Positions 1,630 through 39,591 of a stretch of 64,000 nt of DNA are shown here, one piece after another. The stretch comes from Clostridia bacterium (GTDB lineage: Bacteria; Bacillota; Clostridia; RGIG6154), in contig JAFQQW010000058.1 in assembly GCA_017410375.1 (NCBI GenBank), forward strand, positions 9,192 to 73,191. The letters run 5' to 3'. Every line of letters begins with the position of its first letter. Position 1 is the first letter of the stretch. The notes below the pieces were generated by a model. It did not search any database, was not told the DNA's origin, and saw only the letters and a program-made list of their open reading frames with translations. Made by a program: the position numbers and the translations under genes.

Positions 1630-2808
1630 TTAGCCACCATAACACAAAATTGTACTCACAAAATAGCGGATGTCATCCATCGCGTGGTCTGAAACCTGCA
1701 CCACCGTATCGGTTGTGGCATCGGTGTCCCAGGCATAGGTCTCAAACTCCTTTTTTGTCGCCCTGCAGGCAGGACTGAAGCTTAAATATCCCTGCTCCAA
1801 CAGCGAGGACACCCGCCGAATGCCGTCCAGCACGCGATTTTTGGCTTTGCGCACCGAAAACCTGCCCGAGCGGCGTATCAGTTCGATAAAGGATGCCGCG
1901 GAGGGGTCAACCACCACACACGAAATGGGTCGGTCGCCCGCCAATTCCTCTAACGCCTTGTAATACTCCGCATCGGTCTTTAAGCTTTCTGTGGCTTTGC
2001 CGTCATGATAATACTCCCTGATGCGGTGGGCGTGCTTTCCCACCACCTGCCAAAGCCCCATGGAACACGGGTTTAAAGTCCCGTAATCCACCGAAATGTA
2101 GTAAGGATAGCCTGCGCGCTCTTGGACTTCCCTCACATGCTTTTCGGGGTCGAACATGGGGTACACCAACCCGGATGCAACCACCCAGTCCCCTTCCACA
2201 AACCGTTTGTAAAAGAGTCCGGTATACTCTTTTTTTAAATCGCGAATGTAGTCGGCGGGTAAAAACGTGTTGTCATCTATGTGAAACCGGACAGAAAGCA
2301 AACTTAAATCAGCACGGTCTAAATATTTTTCTTTCAGCCAGTGCCGGGGACTGTCCGGGTTGGTGGTCGCAATCAGCTTTGCGCCTTCTAAGCTCAGGCG
2401 CGAGAGCAACATGGAAAAAAAGCTTTCGGGAAGCAGAGTCAGTTCGTCTAAATAGGCACCGTACAGCGTCATACCGCGGATTTTGCTTTCCGCACCGCTG
2501 TCGCCTGCGCCCTCAAAATATACTTTGCGGTCAAACAGATTTCCGCTCTTTTTGGCAAGGGAGTATGTAAAATGATTTGCCCCTACCATGTTTTGCAGAA
2601 GCTCCAAAGCGTTTCGCTCTAAGGTATTTAAGGTTCGGCCTGCCATTAGAAAGGTGCTCCCTTTGGGCGAGGCGGCAACAAAAAACGCAAACAGAATGAG
2701 CGAAATGTAGGTCTTACCGCTGCGCACCGCCCCCTGCAGGATGTTGATACGCTTCAAGCCCCCTTGTTTGAACAGCTTTAAAAGCTCTGCCTGTTTTTCG
2801 GTTACCAT
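1630..2808 (-). CDS. phage terminase large subunit, PBSX/XtmB-like
   Basis: Walker-A GAVRSGKT near the N-terminus, ATPase then nuclease-like C-terminal half, AGGAGG RBS, followed by the portal-like gene. Confidence 0.8.
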   Translation of the reverse strand: MVTEKQAELLKLFKQGGLKRINILQGAVRSGKTYISLILFAFFVAASPKGSTFLMAGRTLNTLERNALELLQNMVGANHFTYSLAKKSGNLFDRKVYFEGAGDSGAESKIRGMTLYGAYLDELTLLPESFFSMLLSRLSLEGAKLIATTNPDSPRHWLKEKYLDRADLSLLSVRFHIDDNTFLPADYIRDLKKEYTGLFYKRFVEGDWVVASGLVYPMFDPEKHVREVQERAGYPYYISVDYGTLNPCSMGLWQVVGKHAHRIREYYHDGKATESLKTDAEYYKALEELAGDRPISCVVVDPSAASFIELIRRSGRFSVRKAKNRVLDGIRRVSSLLEQGYLSFSPACRATKKEFETYAWDTDATTDTVVQVSDHAMDDIRYFVSTILCYGG

Positions 2809-2811
2809 AGT

Positions 2812-3078
2812 TCACGCCTCCTGCATTGCCTGAATCATCTGTTCAAGCACGGTATTTTCTTCGGACTGTTCTAAACCGCAAAGCCCTAAAATTTCTTTGG
2901 CGGCAGGCACAGACCCTTTCTTTACCGCCAGTTCAAACAGCGATGCTAAGAGCAGTACACCCTTGTCCGTGCGTCGCTTTGTAAGCCCGAAATTCCGCTT
3001 TAAAAACTTGGCTTCCTCCGCCGTCACGTCCTGCCTTAACAGCAGTTCGGTCTCCTTTTTAAAATCATAGCCCTTCAT
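2812..3078 (-). CDS. hypothetical small phage protein (88 aa)
   Basis: ORF between the DNA-binding protein and terL; position would fit a small terminase-associated protein but no motif supports that. Confidence 0.35.
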   Translation of the reverse strand: MKGYDFKKETELLLRQDVTAEEAKFLKRNFGLTKRRTDKGVLLLASLFELAVKKGSVPAAKEILGLCGLEQSEENTVLEQMIQAMQEA

Positions 3079-4194: not shown

Positions 4195-4340
4195 AAAAAA
4201 TAAGCAAGCGGAGCTTGCGTATCGCAAAAAGTATTTCGCAGAAAACTTTTTGCGGAAACGGAGTACCAGACCGAAAAACGAAGTTGTGTTTTTCAAAACG
4301 CAACGAGTAAAAAGGTCTCGGTACGACGTGCTTAAGGTTG
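4195..4340 (+). repeat. repeat family A copy: hairpin GCAAAAAGT-ATTTCGCAGAAA-ACTTTTTGC plus a conserved 3' tail
   Basis: Homologous to 5120-5240, 5450-5560 and 16265-16395. Confidence 0.6.
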
Positions 4341-4392
4341 CTTTCGCAACCGATGCCATTATTATACCACAAAATCCCTAATTTGTCAATAG

Positions 4393-4430
4393 TTTTTGGC
4401 AAAAAAGTTGCGTTATGCAACTTTTTCTTG
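4393..4430 (+). terminator. hairpin AAAAAGTTGCGTTATGCAACTTTTT followed by a T-run
   Basis: 10-bp stem, loop GTTAT, then CTTGTTTTTT. Confidence 0.45.
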
Positions 4431-4486
4431 TTTTTTACACACTTTTTGCCTTTCGCAAAACACTCGCTTGCTTCACAATCCCTTTT

Positions 4487-4735
4487 TTAATAGAGTTTAA
4501 TTTCATATTTTTGAATCAACCGCAAAAGTTTTTCTACTTTTTCGGTGTCGTCCAGTTTTTCACTACGCACAATTTTTTCCACCTTTTCAAAAAACATATT
4601 ATACGCCTCGTTGTATATCTGCTCAAAATCCATGTTCTGCATGGTTCTCCACACCGCATCGCTGATATACGTTTTAATCATACGGTTTGTGATACTTTTC
4701 CGAAAATCTTCTTTATTAAAATACATTTCAGACAT
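4487..4735 (-). CDS. small conserved hypothetical protein (82 aa), paralog of 18609-18857
   Basis: MSEMYFNKEDFRKS...EKLDDTEKVEKLLRLIQKYEIKLY, about 50% identical to the 18609 ORF; AAGGAGG RBS 8 nt before the ATG. Confidence 0.55.
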   Translation of the reverse strand: MSEMYFNKEDFRKSITNRMIKTYISDAVWRTMQNMDFEQIYNEAYNMFFEKVEKIVRSEKLDDTEKVEKLLRLIQKYEIKLY

Positions 4736-4944
4736 TTGTTTGTCCTCCTTAAATAAAAAAAGTGCGCAGCCCGAGAGCCACGCACCAAAAAGACGCAGTG
4801 ACTCCATTCCTACGGTTGCAACACCACATAAACATCATCCCACATAACAGAGGTATGACAAGAATAGAGTGTACGCTTTTTACAAAGATAGCGTACCCTC
4901 TGTTTATGTGGTTTATGTAATTGTTTATGTAATGTTGCATGTTC
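4736..4944 (-). promoter_or_regulatory. structured 5' leader (riboswitch- or attenuator-like) of the small gene, ending in a terminator that abuts the RBS
   Basis: Long-range helix CCACATAAACAGAGG / CCTCTGTTATGTGG; conserved core GCTATCTTTGTAAAAAGCGTAC; block CTGCGTCTTTTTGGTGCG; hairpin GTGCG...CGCAC plus T7; homologous to 18414-18608. Confidence 0.35.
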
Positions 4945-4973
4945 AGTATATCATACTTTTTTTAATTTATCAA
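4945..4973 (-). promoter_or_regulatory. sigma-A-like promoter TTGATA-17-TATACT for the leader and small gene
   Basis: -35 at 4968-4973 and -10 at 4945-4950 on the minus strand with a 17-nt spacer. Confidence 0.4.
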
Positions 4974-5119
4974 CCTTTTTTAACAGGAAATTCATTTCTC
5001 TCCCTCCGTCACCGCTCTGCGGTGCCACCTCCCTCGTCAGAGGGAGGCAAAAAAGGCTCCCTTGTGTAAAGGGCGCTGTCGAACAAAGTGAGACTTAAGG
5101 GAGAGAAAATGCGAACGGA

Positions 5120-5240
5120 GTGAGCACCAGCCAAAAAGTATTACTTGTAAACTTTTTGGCTAAAAGGAGCAACAGCCTGATAAAAAAGCATATGCCGACA
5201 AGGCGTATGTGTAAAAGGAAGGCTTGTTGCGACGAGATTC
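5120..5240 (+). repeat. repeat family A copy, including the invariant 28-mer GAGCAACAGCCTGATAAAAAAGCATATG (5167-5194)
   Basis: Hairpin GCCAAAAAGT...ACTTTTTGGC; the 28-mer is identical to the copies at 1599-1626 and 3887-3914 (both in minus orientation). Confidence 0.65.
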
Positions 5241-33794: not shown

Positions 33795-34832
33795 TTATCC
33801 CTGATACACCAGATTCTTTTCAATCATTTCGTCAACGTTTGTTGCATCCCACCATGCACCGGAGATATCAACCTTCTTCTGAACCTCCTTGCCTTCCAGA
33901 GCAAATACCGCCTGTTCAACTGCCTGATAACCAATCTGGAACGAATCCTGTGCAACAGAACCTATAAGCTTAGGACCTGTTGTTTTCTTCATCCATTCAA
34001 TCTGTTTTGTACCGGCATCATATCCTGCAAACTTGATTGCATCATACTTTGCACCGGCAGCACCGATAGCATCATAAACCTGTTTAACAACGCCTTCGTT
34101 TGACATAAAGATGGCATCTGCACCCTTTTCGGCAAGTGCTTCGAGAGCTGCTTTATAAGCATTATCTGCATCACCGGGCTTAACTTCCTTTTCAATTGTG
34201 TATTTACCCTTTGTTGCTTCGTCAGCATCTGCAAGCTCTTTGAACTTATCAATAAAGCCTGCCGCTCTGTCAATACCGGTCTGCGTTTCATCGTGCTGAA
34301 TCACACCGATGATATAGCCGTCAGAAGCTGCAATATCGTCCTTGAGCACTGCATAGAAATTTTCAGCAACTGTGCCTGCTGCAAGATAGTTACTTGTTGA
34401 AACATGTGCAACCAACGGGTTTTTGCCTGCTGCATCCAATGCTGCAATATCGTTTGCCCAGATACCGCTGTCGAACTGAACTACGGGAATATCATTATCC
34501 TTAGCCTGTGTCAGGAGATCAACAAAGCCTTCACCAATAGTCGCTAATACGATAGCCGATGCATTGTTGGAAAGCGCTGTCTGAACCATTTCCATCTGCG
34601 AGGGAAGGTCTTTTGCCGATTCACTCGCAGGCCCTCTGAATGTGATTTCGTAACCATATTTAGCACCCGCTGCTTCCGCACCTGCTTTTACAGACTGCCA
34701 GAATGCGTGTGATTCGCCTTTTGCAACTACAGCAATGGTCTTACCTCCTGTTGCTTCGCCGGTACCACCGCAACCTGTAAGAGTAGCCACAAGAATTGTT
34801 GCCAGCAAAATAAGTGATAATACTTTTTTCAT
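33795..34832 (-). CDS. sugar ABC transporter substrate-binding lipoprotein (RbsB-like periplasmic binding protein fold)
   Basis: Lipobox LTGCGG; type I PBP fold of about 345 aa; operon with the RbsC- and RbsA-like genes. Confidence 0.8.
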   Translation of the reverse strand: MKKVLSLILLATILVATLTGCGGTGEATGGKTIAVVAKGESHAFWQSVKAGAEAAGAKYGYEITFRGPASESAKDLPSQMEMVQTALSNNASAIVLATIGEGFVDLLTQAKDNDIPVVQFDSGIWANDIAALDAAGKNPLVAHVSTSNYLAAGTVAENFYAVLKDDIAASDGYIIGVIQHDETQTGIDRAAGFIDKFKELADADEATKGKYTIEKEVKPGDADNAYKAALEALAEKGADAIFMSNEGVVKQVYDAIGAAGAKYDAIKFAGYDAGTKQIEWMKKTTGPKLIGSVAQDSFQIGYQAVEQAVFALEGKEVQKKVDISGAWWDATNVDEMIEKNLVYQG

Positions 34833-34902
34833 AAAACATCCTCCTTTTTTTTATTTTTTGCTTTTCTTTTGTTTTGCGCGCGCTTTATTTTTTTGCTTAA
34901 TA

Positions 34903-35922
34903 TTAAGCTTTCACTTTTTCTTTTTTAGGCTTCTTTTCTATTTTAACTTTGCTCGCATTTTTGTTTTTAATAACGTCCATAAGTACTGCTACGACGACAA
35001 TGATACCTGTTAAAACATATGTAACATACGTTGAATTTACATTTAAATTGAATCGTGCAAGTACAAAGTTAAGTCCACTTCTGATTACAACAAGCATAAT
35101 CGCACCGATTACAGAGCCGGCAATTGAAGCAGTACCGCCAGCAGCGGATGTACCGCCGATGTATACGCCTGCAATGGCATCAAGCTCCATACCATTGCCT
35201 GTTGCGGATGCTACTGTTGTAAAGGATGCTGCCCAGAAAATCGCTGCAATACCTGTTGCAATTCCTGCGATTGTATAAGCAATAATTTTGTATTTGTCTG
35301 TGTTTATACCCGAAAGCCTTGTCGCTTCTTCATTACTGCCGATTGAAAGTATGTATCTTCCAATTTTGCATTTGTACATAAGATACATACAAATCAGTGC
35401 AAACAGCAACACCCACAGCAAGCCCACAGGTACGCCGTTAAAGTTTGAAAACACTTTATTAAACCATGTTCCACCCGGGAAAAAGATATTGGGAATCGAA
35501 ACTATAATTGCACTGAGCCCTCTTCCAAACATCATTGTTCCGAGCGTAGCTATAAATGCCGGAATTTTAAGCTTAGCAACCAAAAGTCCATTTACAAAGC
35601 CAACTACGGCACCAATTGCTATCATAACAGGAATTGTAAACCCAAGAGGCATGCCGTTCATATACAGCTTACCTGCAACAACTGCTGCCGCAATGCAAGT
35701 TGTACCGATCGAAAGGTCGATACCGCCTGTTGCAATGACAAATGTAACACCAAGTCCCATAATAGCATATGGAGCCAATGACTGTGCCATACTGACTATA
35801 TTATATTTCCCTAAAAAATTTGGATTCAATATCCAGAATACAAGCACCAGAACTGCAAGCGCAGCGATGATAATCATGTTCTGCATGCTTTTCCTTACTA
35901 AAGCTGCAAATGAATTTTTCAT
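34903..35922 (-). CDS. sugar ABC transporter permease (RbsC-like)
   Basis: About 10 TM helices; GAAGGGAGAG RBS before the ATG at 35922. Confidence 0.8.
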   Translation of the reverse strand: MKNSFAALVRKSMQNMIIIAALAVLVLVFWILNPNFLGKYNIVSMAQSLAPYAIMGLGVTFVIATGGIDLSIGTTCIAAAVVAGKLYMNGMPLGFTIPVMIAIGAVVGFVNGLLVAKLKIPAFIATLGTMMFGRGLSAIIVSIPNIFFPGGTWFNKVFSNFNGVPVGLLWVLLFALICMYLMYKCKIGRYILSIGSNEEATRLSGINTDKYKIIAYTIAGIATGIAAIFWAASFTTVASATGNGMELDAIAGVYIGGTSAAGGTASIAGSVIGAIMLVVIRSGLNFVLARFNLNVNSTYVTYVLTGIIVVVAVLMDVIKNKNASKVKIEKKPKKEKVKA

Positions 35923-35953
35923 ACTATATTCTCTCCCTTCATCAAACAACTGC

Positions 35954-37453
35954 TTATTGTTCTCTCATTGTAGCATAAGCCATTATTTTTTCCTGTGTTG
36001 CATCCTTTATGTCAATCTCACCGGTTATACGACCTTCACACATTACCACAACCCTGTCACTAAGTCTCTGGATTTCTGTCAGTTCAGATGAAATCATAAT
36101 AACTGACTTGCCTTGAGATGTAAGTTCTTCCATCAAAGTATACATCTCGCTCTTTGCTCCAATATCAATACCTCTTGTGGGTTCGTCAAATATAAAAATA
36201 TCTGAATTTTCGAGAAGCCATCTTGCAATAATAACCTTCTGCTGATTTCCGCCCGAGAGATTTTTAAGCAATTGCTTCATGGAAGGAGTTTTGGTCTTAA
36301 GCTTCTCATTTTCCTTTGCCGTTTCCGCTTCGACCATTCTATCGTTAATCCATCCGAATTGAATGAATTTTTCAAGGGATGCCAGCGCTGAATTTTCCGC
36401 AACAGATTTATCAAGCATTAGCCCGTATCTTTTTCTGTCCTCCGAAAGATAACAAATGCCTCTCTTTACTGCATCCTCCGGTGTCTTGATTTTAACTTTT
36501 TCTCCATTCACGAAAATTTCACCGCTGTCAATAGGGTCTGCACCATAGATTGCACGTGCAACCTCCGTTCTTCCGGCGCCCATAAGCCCCGAAAAGCCTA
36601 ATATTTCGCCTTTTCTTAATTTGAAGCTTACATTCTTTATTTCCTTGCCTCTGGTTAAGTTTCTAACCTCAAGTACAACTTCTGCATCCTCCGGAACACT
36701 ACTTTGTTCCTTTTTATCGCCATAAATGACTCTTCCGACCATCATTTTAACGATTTCATCTTTGGTTGTATCTTTTGTCAGGGCAGTTCCTACATACTCA
36801 CCGTCGCGCATTACGGTAATCCGGTCAGAAATCCGATTGATTTCATCCATACGGTGCGAAATATATATCATGCCTATACCTTTAGCCTTAAGGTCATTCA
36901 TAATTTTAAAAAGTTCTTCAACTTCAACCTGCGTTAAGGCAGCAGTAGGTTCATCAAGAATCAGTATTTTGCAATCTCTTGAAACCGCCTTGGCAATTTC
37001 AACCATTTGCTGTTTTCCCACAGTAAGCGTACCGAGCACCGCAGAGGGGTCTATTTTAACACCGATTCTGTCAAACAACTCCTTCGCGTCCTGCTCCATC
37101 TTTTTATCGTCTATGTATATCCCCTTCACCATAGGCTCTCTGCCTATATAAATGTTTTGTGCAACCGTTAAATGATTCATCATATTGAGTTCCTGGTGAA
37201 TAATGCTTATGCCGGCGTCCTGAGACTCTTTAATGGTGCCAAATTCCACTTCCTGTCCAAAAAGACGGATTTCACCGCCGTCGCGCTTATGAATTCCGCA
37301 CAAAACCTTCATAAGAGTTGATTTTCCTGCTCCGTTCTCACCCATAAGAGCATGCACTTCGCCCTCTTCCAGCTCCAGGTTTACATTTTTCAAAGCATGG
37401 ACTCCCGAAAATCTCTTGTCTATGTCTTTCATTTCAAGAATAATCTGACCCAT
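35954..37453 (-). CDS. sugar ABC transporter ATP-binding protein with two ATPase cassettes (RbsA-like)
   Basis: Two Walker A motifs (GENGAGKS, GLMGAGRT), two LSGG signature motifs, length 499 aa. Confidence 0.9.
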   Translation of the reverse strand: MGQIILEMKDIDKRFSGVHALKNVNLELEEGEVHALMGENGAGKSTLMKVLCGIHKRDGGEIRLFGQEVEFGTIKESQDAGISIIHQELNMMNHLTVAQNIYIGREPMVKGIYIDDKKMEQDAKELFDRIGVKIDPSAVLGTLTVGKQQMVEIAKAVSRDCKILILDEPTAALTQVEVEELFKIMNDLKAKGIGMIYISHRMDEINRISDRITVMRDGEYVGTALTKDTTKDEIVKMMVGRVIYGDKKEQSSVPEDAEVVLEVRNLTRGKEIKNVSFKLRKGEILGFSGLMGAGRTEVARAIYGADPIDSGEIFVNGEKVKIKTPEDAVKRGICYLSEDRKRYGLMLDKSVAENSALASLEKFIQFGWINDRMVEAETAKENEKLKTKTPSMKQLLKNLSGGNQQKVIIARWLLENSDIFIFDEPTRGIDIGAKSEMYTLMEELTSQGKSVIMISSELTEIQRLSDRVVVMCEGRITGEIDIKDATQEKIMAYATMREQ

Positions 37454-37526: not shown

Positions 37527-38051
37527 TCAGACCTTATTTTTAAACCTTACCAGCGAAGCAACCGCTGAAATCATATTGAAAACCTCTGCCACTATTCCGC
37601 CCAGTGTAAAATTGAAAATATTATGAATCAGCCAAGCAGGAGAAAGTGCTGCAACCTGAAAATATCTTATCTTCTTTCCGGCCTCATACCACATCAATAC
37701 ACTCACCACCAAAAGCGAAACATACGGAAGTGTCGTTAATATAATTTGAAGGATATCCCCTTCAAGCAAGGTCAGTGAATAGATATACGCAACCGTAAAC
37801 AGTGCCTCTACAAGTAGCATCTTCCATATTTTATTGTTCTTCTTCATATACAGCACGCCTCTTACCAGAATTGTAAGATTAAAAAGTGCACCGCCATATG
37901 CGCCTATAAGCAAGAAGTTTATAAAAAACATCAGTCCGCCTATCCCCTGCACAAAAACCAGTTTTTTACTGTTTTTGCACTGAAAAGACAACACAAACAA
38001 CAAAAGTCCGAATATACCGAAAACTTGTCCAGTAATCTCTCTGACGCCCAT
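37527..38051 (-). CDS. YgjV-family small inner-membrane protein
   Basis: 174 aa with about 5 TM helices and a YgjV-like hydrophobic pattern; own strong promoter. Confidence 0.5.
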   Translation of the reverse strand: MGVREITGQVFGIFGLLLFVLSFQCKNSKKLVFVQGIGGLMFFINFLLIGAYGGALFNLTILVRGVLYMKKNNKIWKMLLVEALFTVAYIYSLTLLEGDILQIILTTLPYVSLLVVSVLMWYEAGKKIRYFQVAALSPAWLIHNIFNFTLGGIVAEVFNMISAVASLVRFKNKV

Positions 38052-38160
38052 TTTTCACCCCGTTTTAATGTATCCCTATAATTTTATGAAAATCCGAAAC
38101 AATATATTATTTATATTAATTATATAATTAGGTTACAGGAAAGATGCACCTTGTTTTTAA

Positions 38161-38340
38161 TGAATTGACAACTTCGTTGTCATGAATTGGCTAAAGCCAT
38201 GAATTGTTGCTATCGCAACATGAATTGAATTGCCTATATAATGCACGAAGTGTAATTCATGAGCCGCAAGGCTCAATTCATGAAATCACAGATTTCAATT
38301 CACGACGAAGGCAATTCATTGAGTTTGCTTTGCAAACTCA
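38161..38340 (-). promoter_or_regulatory. 5'-UTR array: four AUGAAUUG-type and four CAAUUCAU-type 8-mers interleaved with tetraloop hairpins
   Basis: Hairpins GACAAC-TTCG-GTTGTC, GGC-TAAA-GCC, GTTGC-TATC-GCAAC, GAGCC-GCAA-GGCTC, GAGTTTGC-TT-GCAAACTC, each flanked by the 8-mer; lies between the promoter and the YgjV start. Confidence 0.5.
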
Positions 38341-38368
38341 TTATATCATAAAAAATATTAACTTTCAA
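38340..38368 (-). promoter_or_regulatory. strong sigma-A promoter TTGAAA-17-TGaTATAAT (extended -10)
   Basis: -35 at 38363-38368, -10 at 38340-38345, TG at -15 on the minus strand. Confidence 0.55.
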
Positions 38369-38377
38369 TACTTTCCG

Positions 38378-38406
38378 CAAAAAAAACGGAGCTTTCGCTC
38401 CGCTTC
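38378..38406 (-). terminator. rho-independent terminator GCGGAGCGAAAGCTCCGC + T8 ending the polysaccharide operon
   Basis: Perfect 7-bp GC stem with GAAA loop and a U8 tract, directly after the ugd stop. Confidence 0.75.
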
Positions 38407-39591
38407 TTAATCTCTGAAATATAAGTCTCTGGTATACACCTTATCTAAAACATCCGCAATGTCCTCCGAATAGCGGTTTGCCAGAATTACGTCGCTGATT
38501 TCCTTAAACTCTGCCAAATCACGGATTACACGGCTGTTAAAGAATTTGTCATCATGCATGGTCGGCTCATAAATAACCACCTCAATGCCCTTTGCCTTGA
38601 TACGCTTCATAACCCCCTGAATAGAGCTTTGACGGAAATTGTCCGACCCCGCCTTCATGGTCAGACGGTAAATGCCAACCGTCTTGGGTTGCTTTGCGAT
38701 AATCTGGTCTGCAATAAAATCTTTTCGGGTGCCGTTTGCCGCCACAATTGCCGAAATGATGTTTTGGGGCACATCATTGTAGTTTGCAAGCAACTGCTTT
38801 GTGTCTTTGGGCAGACAGTAGCCGCCGTACCCGAAAGAGGGATTGTTATAGTGATTGCCGATTCTGGGGTCTAAGCCAACCCCCTCGATGATGGATTTTG
38901 TGTCTAAATTCCGCACCTGTGCATAGGTATCCAACTCATTAAAGAAAGATACGCGAAGGGCTAAGTAAGTGTTTGCAAAAAGCTTTACCGCTTCTGCCTC
39001 TGTAGGGTTCATGTAGCGGATTTCAATATCCTCTTTTAAAGCCCCGTCTTTTAAAAGACCTGCAAAGGTTTCTGCCGCTTTTCTAAGGCGTGCATTCTTT
39101 ACCGGCACACCCACAATGATACGGCTGGGATACAAATTGTCATAAAGTGCTCTGCCCTCACGCAAAAATTCGGGGCTGAACAAAATGTTGTCACAGCAAA
39201 ATCTTTCCCGCACCGATTCGGTGTAGCCTACCGGCACGGTGGATTTGATAATCATCACCGCATCGGGGTTTACTGCAATCACCTGCTCGATCACACTTTC
39301 TACCGAGGACGTATCAAAATAATTTTTGTTCGGGTCATAATTTGTGGGGGTGGAGATGACAACCATATCCGCATCCTTGTACGCAGACGCCCCGTCTGTG
39401 GTTGCGGTTAAATTCAGTTCTTTTTTGCTTAAATATTCTGCAATTTCCTTGTCCTGAATGGGTGAAATGCGATTGTGAATCATATTCACCTTTTCTTCAA
39501 TAATGTCTACCGCCGTAACGGTATTTTTCTGTGCCAGAAGAACGGCAACCGAAAGTCCTACATACCCGGTGCCTGCAACTGCAATTTTCAT
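38407..39591 (-). CDS. ugd: UDP-glucose 6-dehydrogenase
   Basis: N-terminal [15 protein letters not shown]-binding motif; UDPGDH central and C-terminal regions with the catalytic-Cys context GGYCLPKD. Confidence 0.9.

Follow-up and report, generated by a model that had tools for sequence, protein, structure and literature searches.

A dispersed array of 9-mers and small hairpins in the probable 5' leader of a clostridial ygjV gene and its association with PF05635 (S23p) genes

The window, by which we mean the whole 64-kb stretch of DNA that was analysed, carries on its minus strand a gene for a YgjV-family membrane protein, followed by a CUT2-type ABC transporter. Between the gene and its promoter lies an array (38159-38320) of 8-mer-type units separated by small perfect hairpins. 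The host features around the array are as follows.

37527..38051, minus strand: gene for the YgjV-family membrane protein (PF10688; ATG at 38051), a host gene outside the element
38340..38348, minus strand: extended -10 (TGaTATAAT) of the ygjV promoter, from the promoter scan, 17 nt from the -35
38363..38368, minus strand: -35 hexamer (TTGAAA) of the ygjV promoter, from the promoter scan; host sequence, kept in the array-less strain L121
38379..38406, minus strand: terminator of the upstream UDP-glucose dehydrogenase gene; host sequence and upstream limit of the ygjV transcription unit

The promoter matched at 11 of 12 positions, with the TG, in the promoter scan, which agrees with the extended -10 promoter (TTGAAA-17-TGaTATAAT, 38340-38368, minus strand) of the original prediction. 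The array starts 1 nt past the extended -10, so that the expected transcription start (~7 nt downstream, as placed by the standard -10 to +1 spacing) falls within the 5' arm of the first hairpin, H0. With a good promoter on one side and the ygjV start on the other, the array should be transcribed as a 5' leader. The sequence and the promoter scan gave no terminator 3' of the array, and the ygjV ribosome-binding site, about 100 nt downstream of the last unit, is not sequestered by it. In the direction of transcription, the parts of the element are as follows.

38119..38339, minus strand: 221-bp segment absent from strain L121 and present in the window and in L122 (strain comparison)
38321..38339, minus strand: terminal hairpin H0, GAGTTTGC-AAA-GCAAACTC, conserved in all window-type (W-type) copies
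38253..38320, minus strand: forward arm of four units with hairpins, from sequence and unit spacing
38312-38320, minus strand: forward unit AATGAATTG
38304-38311, minus strand: spacer CCTTCGTCG between units F1 and F2, a decayed hairpin that is intact in sister copies (GCC-NNN(N)-GGC)
38296-38303, minus strand: forward unit GTGAATTG
38283-38295, minus strand: forward-arm hairpin AAATC-TGT-GATTT
38274-38282, minus strand: forward unit CATGAATTG
38261-38274, minus strand: forward-arm hairpin GAGCC-TTGC-GGCTC
38253-38261, minus strand: forward unit CATGAATTA
38233..38252, minus strand: turn, made of the centre hairpin CAC-TTC-GTG (38244-38252) and CATTATATAGG (38233-38243)
38159..38232, minus strand: reverse arm of four units with hairpins, from sequence and unit spacing
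38219-38232, minus strand: reverse unit CAATTCAATTCATG
38206-38219, minus strand: reverse-arm hairpin GTTGC-GATA-GCAAC
38198-38206 and 38181-38189, minus strand: reverse unit CAATTCATG, two copies
38189-38198, minus strand: reverse-arm hairpin GGC-TTTA-GCC
38167-38181, minus strand: reverse-arm hairpin GACAAC-GAA-GTTGTC
38159-38167, minus strand: reverse unit CAATTCATT
38126..38158, minus strand: tail AAAAACAAGGTGCATCTTTCCTGTAACCTAATT, the first part common to sister copies, with no ORF after it

The order and sequence of the four forward and four reverse 8-mers with interleaved hairpins, as originally described, were borne out. The loops given there (TTCG, GCAA, TAAA and TATC) are those of the plus, antisense strand, and the loops of the transcript are GAA, UUGC, UUUA and GAUA. 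The hairpin written as GACAAC-TTCG-GTTGTC is GACAAC-TTC-GTTGTC, with a 3-nt loop and no UUCG tetraloop, and the first hairpin has a 3-nt loop (TTT/AAA) instead of TT. An argument from UUCG/GNRA tetraloops was therefore rejected, being based on the antisense strand and on one mis-parsed loop. The stem of the centre hairpin shows a compensatory change (GTGC/GCAC) in the copy at locus L029. The heptamer TGAATTG occurs 16 times in the 64-kb window (19 expected); 8 of the 16 fall within ~160 bp of array, a clustering far beyond chance, and there is no second cluster elsewhere in the window. Readings of TGAATTG as an ArgR/AhrC half-site, a sigma-G promoter, an iteron or an attP arm were dropped, because the spacing is unphased and the intervening palindromes would lack a role.

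Strain L121 encodes a 100% identical YgjV behind the same promoter and lacks exactly the 221 bp that hold the array. The segment is bounded by a 7-bp direct repeat, ATATAAT (38340-38346 and 38119-38125), and the array is polymorphic within the species. The empty site could equally well be a slippage deletion between the ATATAAT repeats as an unoccupied target. A second empty site was sought through the LOG-family gene beside L029, and gave no clean filled/empty pair because the LOG-family orthologues differ in synteny. Neither the array nor a match to the covariance model R1 described below was present upstream of five ygjV orthologues (84, 82, 81, 80 and 71% identity), and the promoter is alignable, with no array, in the orthologues L136 and L125. 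The array is thus missing at six other ygjV loci, which is one of the two observations that the original prediction had named together as refuting it, and the same element adjoins many unrelated genes. What survives of that interpretation is a structured element in the probable ygjV 5' leader; control specific to ygjV does not survive. The comparison of these sequences indicates that the ygjV 5' UTR carries the array as a passenger and that neither a riboswitch nor an operator specific to ygjV is involved; for ygjV the array would amount to an added structured leader of ~220 nt, dispensable in the sister strain.

To describe the family, we scanned for three spaced copies of TGAATTG, which returned 120 loci. 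At least two hairpin spacers were found at 56 of the 61 loci labelled Clostridia (204 of 235 spacers), versus 1 of the 59 loci from other taxa (3 of 135 spacers). Each building block consists of the 9-mer CATGAATTG and, after it, a short perfect hairpin, the sequence of which varies within each array. Blocks placed head to tail form an arm, and most copies have two inverted arms, usually of 3+3 or 4+4 units, although one-armed arrays of 3-10 units are common. Several arrays occur per contig or MAG, including a contig with a P22-like portal gene in which three consecutive intergenic regions carry arrays; the density in the window is one per 64 kb. All copies seen are intergenic, between protein-coding genes, in unrelated contexts that include positions between convergent genes, inside operons and after stop codons, and their orientation to the neighbouring genes is biased but not fixed (~14 sense versus 5 convergent). 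Arrays persist at orthologous sites (L072/L112/L115, L046/L070 and L104/L085), and contigs L123 and L124 end inside the repeat.

Five further close copies (L029 and L129-L132) adjoin different genes; the four alignable ones (L029 and L129-L131) are 86-93% identical to the window copy over ~185 nt. The window copy and those at L029, L129, L131 and L132 all start 1 nt after TRTGnTATAAT, with TTGnnn 17 nt upstream, whereas their promoter spacers and the DNA further upstream are unrelated. At L131 there is a comparable TATAAT at the candidate far end. The extreme ends of the element are not inverted repeats, and neither a target duplication nor a shared end was seen at L029 or L106. Rfam scans gave only noise (37900-38600 with E-values up to 10, and the whole window at gathering thresholds). 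Neither PLSDB plasmids nor INPHARED phages contained a blastn match to the array, and CATGAATTG and CAATTCATG brought up nothing but primer and shRNA noise in full-text literature searches. The lack of an Rfam match is in line with the original remark that no element with such a layout has been described. We regard the family as real on these sequence comparisons, namely as a previously undescribed dispersed repeat of gut Clostridia (Oscillospirales and Christensenellales MAGs) and their phages.

RNA folding, which the original prediction had suggested as a check, showed a strongly structured array, far better than shuffles (38052-38340, minus strand; -75.1 kcal/mol, z -4.3). Single-stranded DNA folding of 38150-38345 gave z -6.2 on the plus strand and -6.1 on the minus strand. 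The nested pairing of forward with reverse units, also part of that prediction, is found in the MFE fold, and the inverted arms pair in MFE and alifold structures; however, a long segmented stem is not defining, one-armed arrays being common. In leaders of ORF-bearing copies, the conserved variant units GAAATCATG and CAAATCAT give A-A mismatches against the forward units, so that arm-arm pairing is not strictly maintained. Of 182 spacers, 62% contain a perfect stem of 3 bp or more when read inwards from their ends, compared with 1.9% for shuffled sequences, and G-T or A-C pairs number only 2 and 4 of 172. A C-G pair closes 137 of 168 hairpins, GGCGAAGCC recurs, and loops of the type C(GNA)G or C(GNNA)G occur on one strand only (74 versus 4). 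Such loops are a signature of DNA mini-hairpins (PMC13037366, PMC3201870), and together with the near-perfect stems they argue for structure at the DNA level rather than at the RNA level. Counting G-U against A-C pairs as a guide to the transcribed strand was uninformative, because the stems are almost always perfect. The unit spacing, 16-23 bp, is out of helical phase.

PF05635 (S23p/IVP) proteins have been known since the early 1990s from intervening sequences (IVSs) of 23S rRNA, and later as the DGR subunit Avd. To our knowledge, PF05635 has no known catalytic or mobility function, and its stand-alone members have no known function. Genes of this family, an assignment that was tested here, abut arrays at L032, L046, L070, L063 and L075, all of which were found through their arrays. 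The reverse test started from PF05635 homologues: in each of the three for which a contig was examined, a two-armed array directly precedes the gene. Two kinds of neighbourhood are represented among them, and one has a second, downstream array as well. Full members of the family with a PF05635 ORF are L032, L046, L070, L063, L075 and L141-L163, with neighbours that vary by locus (serine recombinase, U5-methyltransferase, ABC/PRK, M28 peptidase/lspA). In most of these cassettes both arms lie upstream of the ORF, and at L063 arms plus CGTAATGTTTTG / CAAAACATTACG flank it. A covariance model, R1, was built only from six leaders of PF05635 genes, and gave the following match in the window.

38150..38330, minus strand: full-length match to R1 (model positions 1-186), 87.5 bits, E 2.6e-20; 51.9 bits on the plus strand

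The match indicates that the window copy is collinear with the PF05635 leaders, on the ygjV sense strand, and the window tail (38126-38158) falls, in alignment with full cassettes, on the ribosome-binding region ahead of their PF05635 ORF. The 64-kb window has no PF05635 ORF (hmmsearch, all six frames). Only ~8 of the ~75 arrays seen abut a PF05635 gene and most copies are solo, so that the link to the protein is by family and not by locus.

The association extends to variants of the array. L085 has a PF05635 gene of 48% identity in the same architecture with a different linker, TTGATGATATACAA, and in a Fibrobacterota MAG (L033) a PF05635 gene of 44% identity is flanked by eight tandem TGAATTG. 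Among the non-Clostridia pattern matches tested, only L033 and a weak case, L031, showed the link, and other small neighbouring ORFs were unrelated. At E <1e-20 the PF05635 subfamily runs to over 6,700 database clusters, and many of these share 85-95% identity among gut Clostridia; the nearest homologue of known structure, 2RLD, has five chains in its deposited entry. The arrays had no transposase, reverse transcriptase or recombinase as a consistent neighbour. Among ~35 genes abutting arrays there was no Y1_Tnp; these were PF05635, housekeeping genes or genes without a Pfam match. Called neighbours of PF05635 genes contained no RT domain. A composite transposon at L022, where two inverted arrays lie 5 kb apart, was considered and rejected, the genes between them being of housekeeping or restriction type, with no transposase.

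Since the two-armed array leads, and sometimes flanks on both sides, a small, highly conserved PF05635 gene, the full form can be read as an IVS-like selfish cassette, and on balance we favour the window array being an ORF-less 'solo' copy of it. The full cassette appears, from the copies at hand, to live in intergenic DNA and not in 23S rRNA. The conserved 9-mers would be the recognition sequence of a trans-acting protein, with the PF05635 protein, the homologues of which are pentamers, as the prime candidate. In the Coxiella IVS, tandem heptamers precede the S23p ORF, and the 28-bp terminal inverted repeats of the element are cleaved by RNase III (PMC4990558). Both S23p and Avd form pentamers with a positive charge, and the DGR RNA contains an element dedicated to binding Avd (PMC4990558; bioRxiv 10.1101/2023.10.23.563531). 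These heptamers and basic pentamers, the arrays beside the PF05635 genes at L085 and L033, and 2RLD support the idea that a protein recognises the array. The hairpins would hold the 9-mers in a fixed geometry, and the two arms could pair into a long branched stem that, by analogy with 23S IVSs, may let the cassette sit in host transcripts and be excised or insulated by RNase III-type processing. ORF-less copies would spread or persist in trans. We infer this mechanism, whether it acts through PF05635 binding, RNase III-type processing or ssDNA hairpins; the multi-site target that the original prediction had considered now has a candidate binder in the PF05635 protein of the full copies.

A bolder form of the selfish-element reading, which we put forward as a doubtful possibility, is that arrays and PF05635 gene constitute a new class of selfish element, in which a pentameric protein of the S23p/Avd type would recognise mini-hairpins of DNA (or RNA) strung together by its cognate 7-13-nt linker and would copy ORF-less forms in trans, one subfamily landing precisely behind the -10 of strong promoters, where DNA is melted. 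If true, this bolder reading would assign a function to the 'IVS protein' family, an orphan for 30 years, and would suggest an origin for the DGR accessory protein Avd.

The start of all five copies with upstream sequence (window, L029, L129, L131 and L132) 1 nt after TRTGnTATAAT would also be expected of a promoter-proximal DNA operator, in which the 9-mers bind a protein, possibly PF05635, that co-regulates promoters, the ygjV-ABC unit being controlled by a roadblock or by hairpin extrusion near the start. H0 overlaps the expected start site and hence cannot fully form in the mRNA, and the perfect stems with C(GNA)G loops are compatible with hairpins of the type extruded from DNA in phage N4 promoters (PMC13037366). 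We nevertheless consider an operator unlikely, because in other subfamilies the arrays occupy sites that lack a nearby promoter (between convergent genes, within operons or following a stop codon), the 16-23 bp spacing is not in helical phase, and the element is dispensable in strain L121.

It is quite unlikely that the array is a REP/REPIN-like ssDNA element, with hairpin plus tag as the REP-type unit and arrays as BIME-like structures whose copying in trans would depend on a single-copy enzyme of the HUH/Y1 (RAYT-like) or IS200/IS605 type, PF05635 being merely a frequent neighbour. The tag GTAG or CGTC is absent, the flanks being TGAATTG ... CA(TG) throughout; the hairpins differ within an array, unlike those of REPs; density is low, at one array per 64 kb; none of the arrays tested adjoins a Y1 transposase; the PF05635 association, three of three in the reverse test, is too tight for chance; and L029 and L106 show no target duplication or shared end. 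The resemblance is nevertheless considerable, since singletons, head-to-tail arrays and head-head or tail-tail pairs mirror REP clusters (PMC3733652), the stems are perfect palindromes with strand-specific DNA mini-hairpin loops, classical terminal inverted repeats are lacking, ATATAAT occurs in the window both in the flank and at the end of the element, as happens with IS200/IS605 insertions, and arrays are kept at the three sets of orthologous sites given above.

Very unlikely is an independent small-RNA gene or a portable promoter-plus-leader module, for which the promoter would belong to the element. The perfect promoter geometry directly upstream of five close copies would suit it, as would the LOG-family gene downstream of L029, which in orthologues closely follows another gene without a promoter of its own; but the array-less strain L121 keeps the same promoter, the orthologues L136 and L125 have an alignable one, no terminator follows the array, other subfamilies and PF05635 leaders have no promoter at that position, and G-U pairing is all but absent from the stems. 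Finally, a ygjV-specific leader, that is, a riboswitch-like RNA or an operator dedicated to the transporter operon as in the original prediction, has the position between promoter and start codon and a strong predicted fold in its favour, yet is hardly credible and largely refuted by the comparative data, given its absence in a strain with an identical protein and in five orthologues, the same element beside unrelated genes, no Rfam match, and a ribosome-binding site left free.

The practical message for the window is that ygjV has no special riboswitch. More generally, the results tie a very large PF05635 subfamily to a distinctive nucleic-acid partner, with other subfamilies keeping the architecture and using a different linker, and this makes S23p binding and function testable with one protein and one 180-nt substrate. 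The repeat family breaks short-read assemblies and can put ~220 nt of strong structure between a promoter and its gene, and is relevant to annotation and expression studies of rumen and gut Clostridia and their phages.

We know of no earlier description of arrays of 3-10 mini-hairpins joined by a constant 9-mer. The DNA mini-hairpins d(GCGNAGC) and d(GCGNNAGC) at single-strand origins and phage N4 promoters have the same C(GNA)G and C(GNNA)G loops (PMC13037366, PMC3201870), but the known cases are single and are used by primases or the N4 polymerase. Avd-binding DGR RNA is similar in that a basic pentameric PF05635-like protein and a structured ncRNA are encoded adjacently (bioRxiv 10.1101/2023.10.23.563531, PMC10053308); however, no reverse transcriptase was seen near the arrays, and their sequence and architecture are unrelated to those of the DGR spacer RNA. 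Like MITEs and PATEs, the arrays include ORF-less copies of ~200 bp similar to the ends of a longer unit that bears an ORF, several copies 86-93% identical at unrelated sites, and a presence/absence polymorphism flanked by a short direct repeat. They differ in that the full unit encodes no known transposase, terminal inverted repeats are not clear, and the direct repeat was seen at one site only, where slippage deletion is an equally good reading.

With REP/BIME/REPIN elements and their RAYTs the arrays share short extragenic palindromes with a conserved flanking tag, the occurrence as single, head-to-tail or inverted pairs between genes and at operon ends, long persistence at orthologous sites, and one small gene proposed to act in trans (PMC3733652, PMC3116915). 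The tag is GTAG or CGTC in REPs and CATGAATTG in the arrays, the gene is a Y1 transposase in the former and PF05635 in the latter, and the arrangement is reversed, since in the arrays the palindromes vary from unit to unit and the linker is constant. Array density appears much lower (one in 64 kb, from the window only) than the more than 100 REPs per genome, and one survey of REPs reported no families in Firmicutes.

The 23S rRNA IVSs with an S23p/PF05635 ORF (Coxiella, Leptospira, Brucella and Xanthomonas relatives) sit in helix 25 or 45 of 23S rRNA, whereas the arrays are intergenic or in mRNA, and the Rfam gathering scan found no rRNA in the window. The IVS has a plain 28-bp stem where the arms of the arrays are strings of 9-mer beads and mini-hairpins, and the array family has many solo and one-armed copies. 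The two nevertheless share a small four-helix-bundle PF05635 ORF in a compact non-coding element, inverted arms that may pair into a long stem (although in most array cassettes both lie upstream of the ORF), short tandem repeats shortly before the ORF (three GACAGAT heptamers in Coxiella), and a sporadic distribution with ORF-less or decaying versions and the character of a 'selfish element' (PMC4990558, PMC11270868).

The array in the window (38159-38320) is a real, non-random feature. It is read on the minus strand, which is the sense strand of ygjV, in the following order.

Features of the ygjV leader
Minus strand, 5' of the ygjV promoter: terminator of the UDP-glucose dehydrogenase gene (reading of 37900-38700)
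Minus strand, between dehydrogenase terminator and array: ygjV promoter, TTGAAA-17-TGaTATAAT (promoter scan, 11/12 with TG)
Minus strand, directly after the promoter: first hairpin, GAGTTTGC-AAA-GCAAACTC (reading of sequence)
Minus strand, after the first hairpin: four forward units, AATGAATTG, GTGAATTG, CATGAATTG and CATGAATTA (reading of sequence)
Minus strand, between forward and reverse units: small centre hairpin (reading of sequence)
Minus strand, after the centre hairpin: four reverse units, CAATTCAATTCATG, CAATTCATG, CAATTCATG and CAATTCATT (reading of sequence)
Minus strand, between array units: small hairpins (reading of sequence)
Minus strand, ATG about 110 nt past the reverse units: YgjV-family gene (PF10688), followed by a CUT2 ABC transporter (Pfam)

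The promoter, the four forward and four reverse units and the interleaved hairpins of the original prediction are all present in this reading. Its tetraloops do not stand, since the loops had been taken from the strand antisense to the transcript, and the one given as UUCG has only three loop nucleotides, TTC/GAA. TGAATTG occurs 16 times in the 64-kb window (about 19 are expected by chance), and 8 of the 16 lie within the 160 bp of the array, with no second cluster elsewhere in the window. As RNA, the array region folds far better than shuffles (z -4.3); as single-stranded DNA it reaches z of about -6 on either strand. An Rfam search returned no family matching the window array. Around it, a promoter-like TTCACC-17-TATAAT (10/12) at 38054-38082 on the plus strand overlaps the ygjV ribosome-binding region and is directed antisense into the array. 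A long same-strand gene run (38407-63451, minus strand) lies upstream, the nearest checked genes being UDP-glucose dehydrogenase, a nucleotidyltransferase and a galactokinase-like kinase, and ygjV is followed at 33795-37453 (minus strand) by a two-domain ABC ATPase, a BPD_transp_2 permease and a periplasmic binding protein.

Comparison of ygjV loci showed that the array is dispensable and not conserved there. Identical YgjV protein was found on several public contigs, and in one MAG without the array (L121) the dehydrogenase-ygjV spacer is 134 bp, versus 355 bp with the array. The L121 promoter ...TATGATATAAT runs directly into TAATATAAATAAT, and in the window and in L122, which has the array, 221 bp are intercalated at this junction, with a 7-bp direct repeat, ATATAAT, at both bounds. 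Five ygjV orthologues (84, 82, 81, 80 and 71% identity) also have no array and carry their own promoters 50-150 nt 5' of the ATG. The original view of the array as ygjV's own device, kept upstream of its orthologues, is contradicted by L121 and by these five genes. Because the ygjV promoters of two of these orthologues (L136 and L125) can be aligned with that of L121 and the window, including the AT-rich bases after it, we take the arrangement lacking the array to be probably ancestral and the promoter to be ygjV's own, with the 221 bp inserted immediately past the -10 box. Taken by itself, the L121 allele may instead have arisen by slippage that deleted the segment between the two ATATAAT copies. 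Short-read assemblies are interrupted by the repeat, or by its being present in some strains and absent from others: Logan contigs L123 and L124, with identical ygjV, terminate at their position 1 within the reverse arm.

A scan for three spaced TGAATTG across 185,579 species genomes gave at least 120 loci and showed that the window array belongs to a taxon-restricted dispersed family. Among the matches listed, 56 of 61 loci with Clostridia-type labels (Clostridia, Oscillospiraceae, Acutalibacteraceae, Ruminococcaceae, Christensenellales, Eubacteriales and similar; mostly rumen/gut MAGs) had at least two hairpin-forming spacers (204/235 spacers); for other taxa the figure among the matches listed was 1 of 59 (3/135 spacers), the lone locus being a rumen MAG labelled Synergistes. 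Counted from the outside in, 62% of 182 spacers (35 arrays) form a perfect stem of 3 bp or longer, versus 1.9% in shuffles. Each basic module consists of CATGAATTG and a hairpin; modules are joined head-to-tail, and every stem is closed by the final G of a unit with the initial C of the unit after it. The two arms of the long segmented stem proposed originally recur in many copies, usually with 3+3 or 4+4 units around an asymmetric centre, TGAATTGAATTGC..., but the stem is not a defining feature, because one-armed arrays (3 to 10 units) and arms in the opposite relative order are common too. Arrays lie 5' of genes, within operons right after a stop codon, or between convergent genes, and at orthologous sites they are retained across species with individual hairpins swapped (L072/L112/L115, L046/L070, L104/L085).

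Several details of individual copies were also noted. The loop of a large terminal hairpin is inverted in L112 (about 950-1000) relative to the orthologous sites L072 and L115 (gcgtgtt-CTCCGTTAAGGAT-aacacgc versus gcgtgtt-ATCCTTAACGGAG-aacacgc), which looks like a DNA-level template switch or hairpin-loop inversion. Many two-armed arrays (for example L003, L018, L046, L072, L115, L129 and L141) conserve a module, GGAGCGnnGCGAGAAATCATG, that includes a GCGNAGC mini-hairpin and does not read as a plain palindrome. Variant units GAAATCATG and CAAATCAT, conserved in many two-armed arrays, place A-A mismatches opposite forward units; in the window copy the units are canonical. At L044:38-354 a one-armed array lies between unrelated microsatellites, ttgtcgc repeats on one side and ctcctaa repeats on the other.

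When small ORFs next to the arrays were scanned with Pfam, one match recurred, PF05635 (S23p). The two-armed array leads directly into the ribosome-binding site of this gene at L032, L046 and L070; the gene lies between reverse and forward arms at L075, and between forward and reverse arms at L063, where an inverted pair, CGTAATGTTTTG / CAAAACATTACG, lengthens both. Neighbours of such cassettes vary (large serine recombinase, TRAM/U5-methyltransferase, ABC ATPase and PRK). PF05635 homologues ('four helix bundle protein [Clostridia bacterium]') formed more than 6,794 clusters at E < 1e-20, the best 120 of which were 85-100% identical. In the reverse test, starting from the protein, a two-armed array was immediately 5' in all three homologues with fetched contigs, one between M28 peptidase and lspA and two after U5-methyltransferase genes in different species; one of the three has a second array right behind the stop codon. 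The closest solved relative is 2RLD (E 1.6e-29), uncharacterised, with five chains deposited. At L151-L160 a second full array past the PF05635 stop codon (1577-1730 and beyond) is followed by about 700 nt in which no gene was called; in L151 an N-run separates the repeated arrays, and spacer lengths vary among strains, which suggests copy-number variation or assembly trouble. The cassette's location downstream of this 23S-rRNA-type methyltransferase gene recurs in several species, and in L151 (about 1150-1200), L070 and L032 the first large hairpin of the array supplies codons of the TRAM/U5-methyltransferase C-terminus (HVESVVCLTR).

More distant relatives of the gene are also accompanied by repeats. 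At L085 a PF05635 gene (1458-1841), 48% identical to the TGAATTG-associated ones, has as leader (1841-2100, minus strand) a two-armed hairpin-bead array with another, longer linker, GTATATCATCA(A) three times and then TTGATGATATACAA three times; a solo TGAATTG array is also present on L085, at 350-513. The gene at L033, from a Chitinispirillaceae MAG, is 44% identical (4439-4801, minus strand) and has tandem heptamers on both sides (4240-5150: multiple ATAAATT, eight TGAATTG that lack hairpins, followed by CAGAGCGGAAATCT and repeats of CCATTCA type); the TGAATTG heptamer therefore accompanies the PF05635 family in another phylum too. Judged from their sequences, these two loci point to co-evolution of protein and repeat.

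A covariance model built solely from six PF05635-gene leaders showed that the window array is collinear with them: it was matched over its full length on the sense strand of ygjV (87.5 bits, E 2.6e-20; 51.9 bits on the other strand). The model matches most two-armed arrays in the survey and gave no match on array-less ygjV loci. We regard the window copy as an ORF-less 'solo' version, because its tail (AAAAACAAGGTG...) can be aligned with the part of the cassettes that holds the ribosome-binding site, but no ORF comes after it.

A metagenome scan with the last unit and terminal hairpin of the window array found four more copies, giving, with L029, five further close copies. Four of these were alignable and share 86-93% identity with the window copy across about 185 nt. 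The five lie beside unrelated genes (LOG-family protein, YbaK-like ORF, sfsA, peptidase, membrane proteins). One has shrunk to 2+1 units and one lacks an arm; differences are mostly in loops, and in the centre stem two bases have changed in a compensatory way. In all five copies with upstream sequence, the window copy among them, TRTGnTATAAT ends 1 nt before the array start, with TTGnnn 17 nt upstream; promoter spacers and DNA farther upstream are unrelated among them. This subfamily may either target -10 boxes or carry the promoter, and of the two, targeting fits the ygjV comparison better. Movement, or at least turnover, is suggested by the polymorphism between strains at ygjV, by solo copies that are nearly identical at unrelated sites, by the five or more kinds of neighbourhood in which cassettes occur and by the several array copies per contig. 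It is also suggested by an IMG/VR contig (L192, 5128 bp, P22-like portal protein) with arrays in three consecutive intergenic regions (237-400, 2871-3040 and 4512-4800), which shows that phage or prophage DNA can carry the repeat too. No transposase, reverse transcriptase or recombinase was consistently near the arrays.

Whether the arrays act as DNA or RNA was considered from their hairpins. Stems are perfectly Watson-Crick in 163 of 172 distinct hairpins, with internal G-T in only 2 and A-C in 4, which is very unlike functional RNAs. The loops (91 triloops, 63 tetraloops) are closed by C-G in 137/168, and on the CAATTCA strand 74 begin with G and end with A, versus 4 of the complementary type (p ~1e-17). 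The dominant loops, GAA, GCA, GTA, GTAA, GCAA and GTCA, with GGCGAAGCC recurrent, bear the signature of the DNA mini-hairpins d(GCGNAGC) and d(GCGNNAGC), which are extraordinarily stable, depend on the C-G closing pair and are known from single-strand replication origins and phage N4 promoters (PMC13037366, PMC3201870). The first hairpin of the window cannot form fully in the mRNA, because the expected start site is within its 5' arm. The mostly-sense orientations speak against a purely DNA-level view: relative to the next gene, two-armed arrays were oriented about 14 sense versus 5 by the covariance model, and one-armed arrays in co-directional gene pairs had TGAATTG on the sense strand in 10 versus 3 cases, both from crude gene calls spot-checked with Pfam.

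PF05635/S23p ORFs occur within 23S rRNA intervening sequences (IVSs) of Coxiella, Leptospira and others, which are regarded as selfish elements and whose terminal inverted repeats form a stem of about 28 bp cut by RNase III; the Coxiella IVS has tandem heptamers, GACAGAT x3 in variable number, just 5' of the ORF, and the Xanthomonas S23p is a homopentameric toroid (PMC4990558, PMC11270868). The accessory protein Avd of diversity-generating retroelements, a positively charged pentamer with the S23p fold, has its own binding element in the structured retroelement RNA (PMC10053308; bioRxiv 10.1101/2023.10.23.563531). The 9-mer may be a protein recognition sequence, with the PF05635 protein as best candidate binder; the arms would work like IVS terminal repeats, in insulation or processing within host transcripts, and solo copies would be non-autonomous derivatives. 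Because at least one defining feature of each class tested is absent, we class the array family with neither the IVS-type S23p elements nor the REP/MITE-like repeats as a member, but as akin to both.
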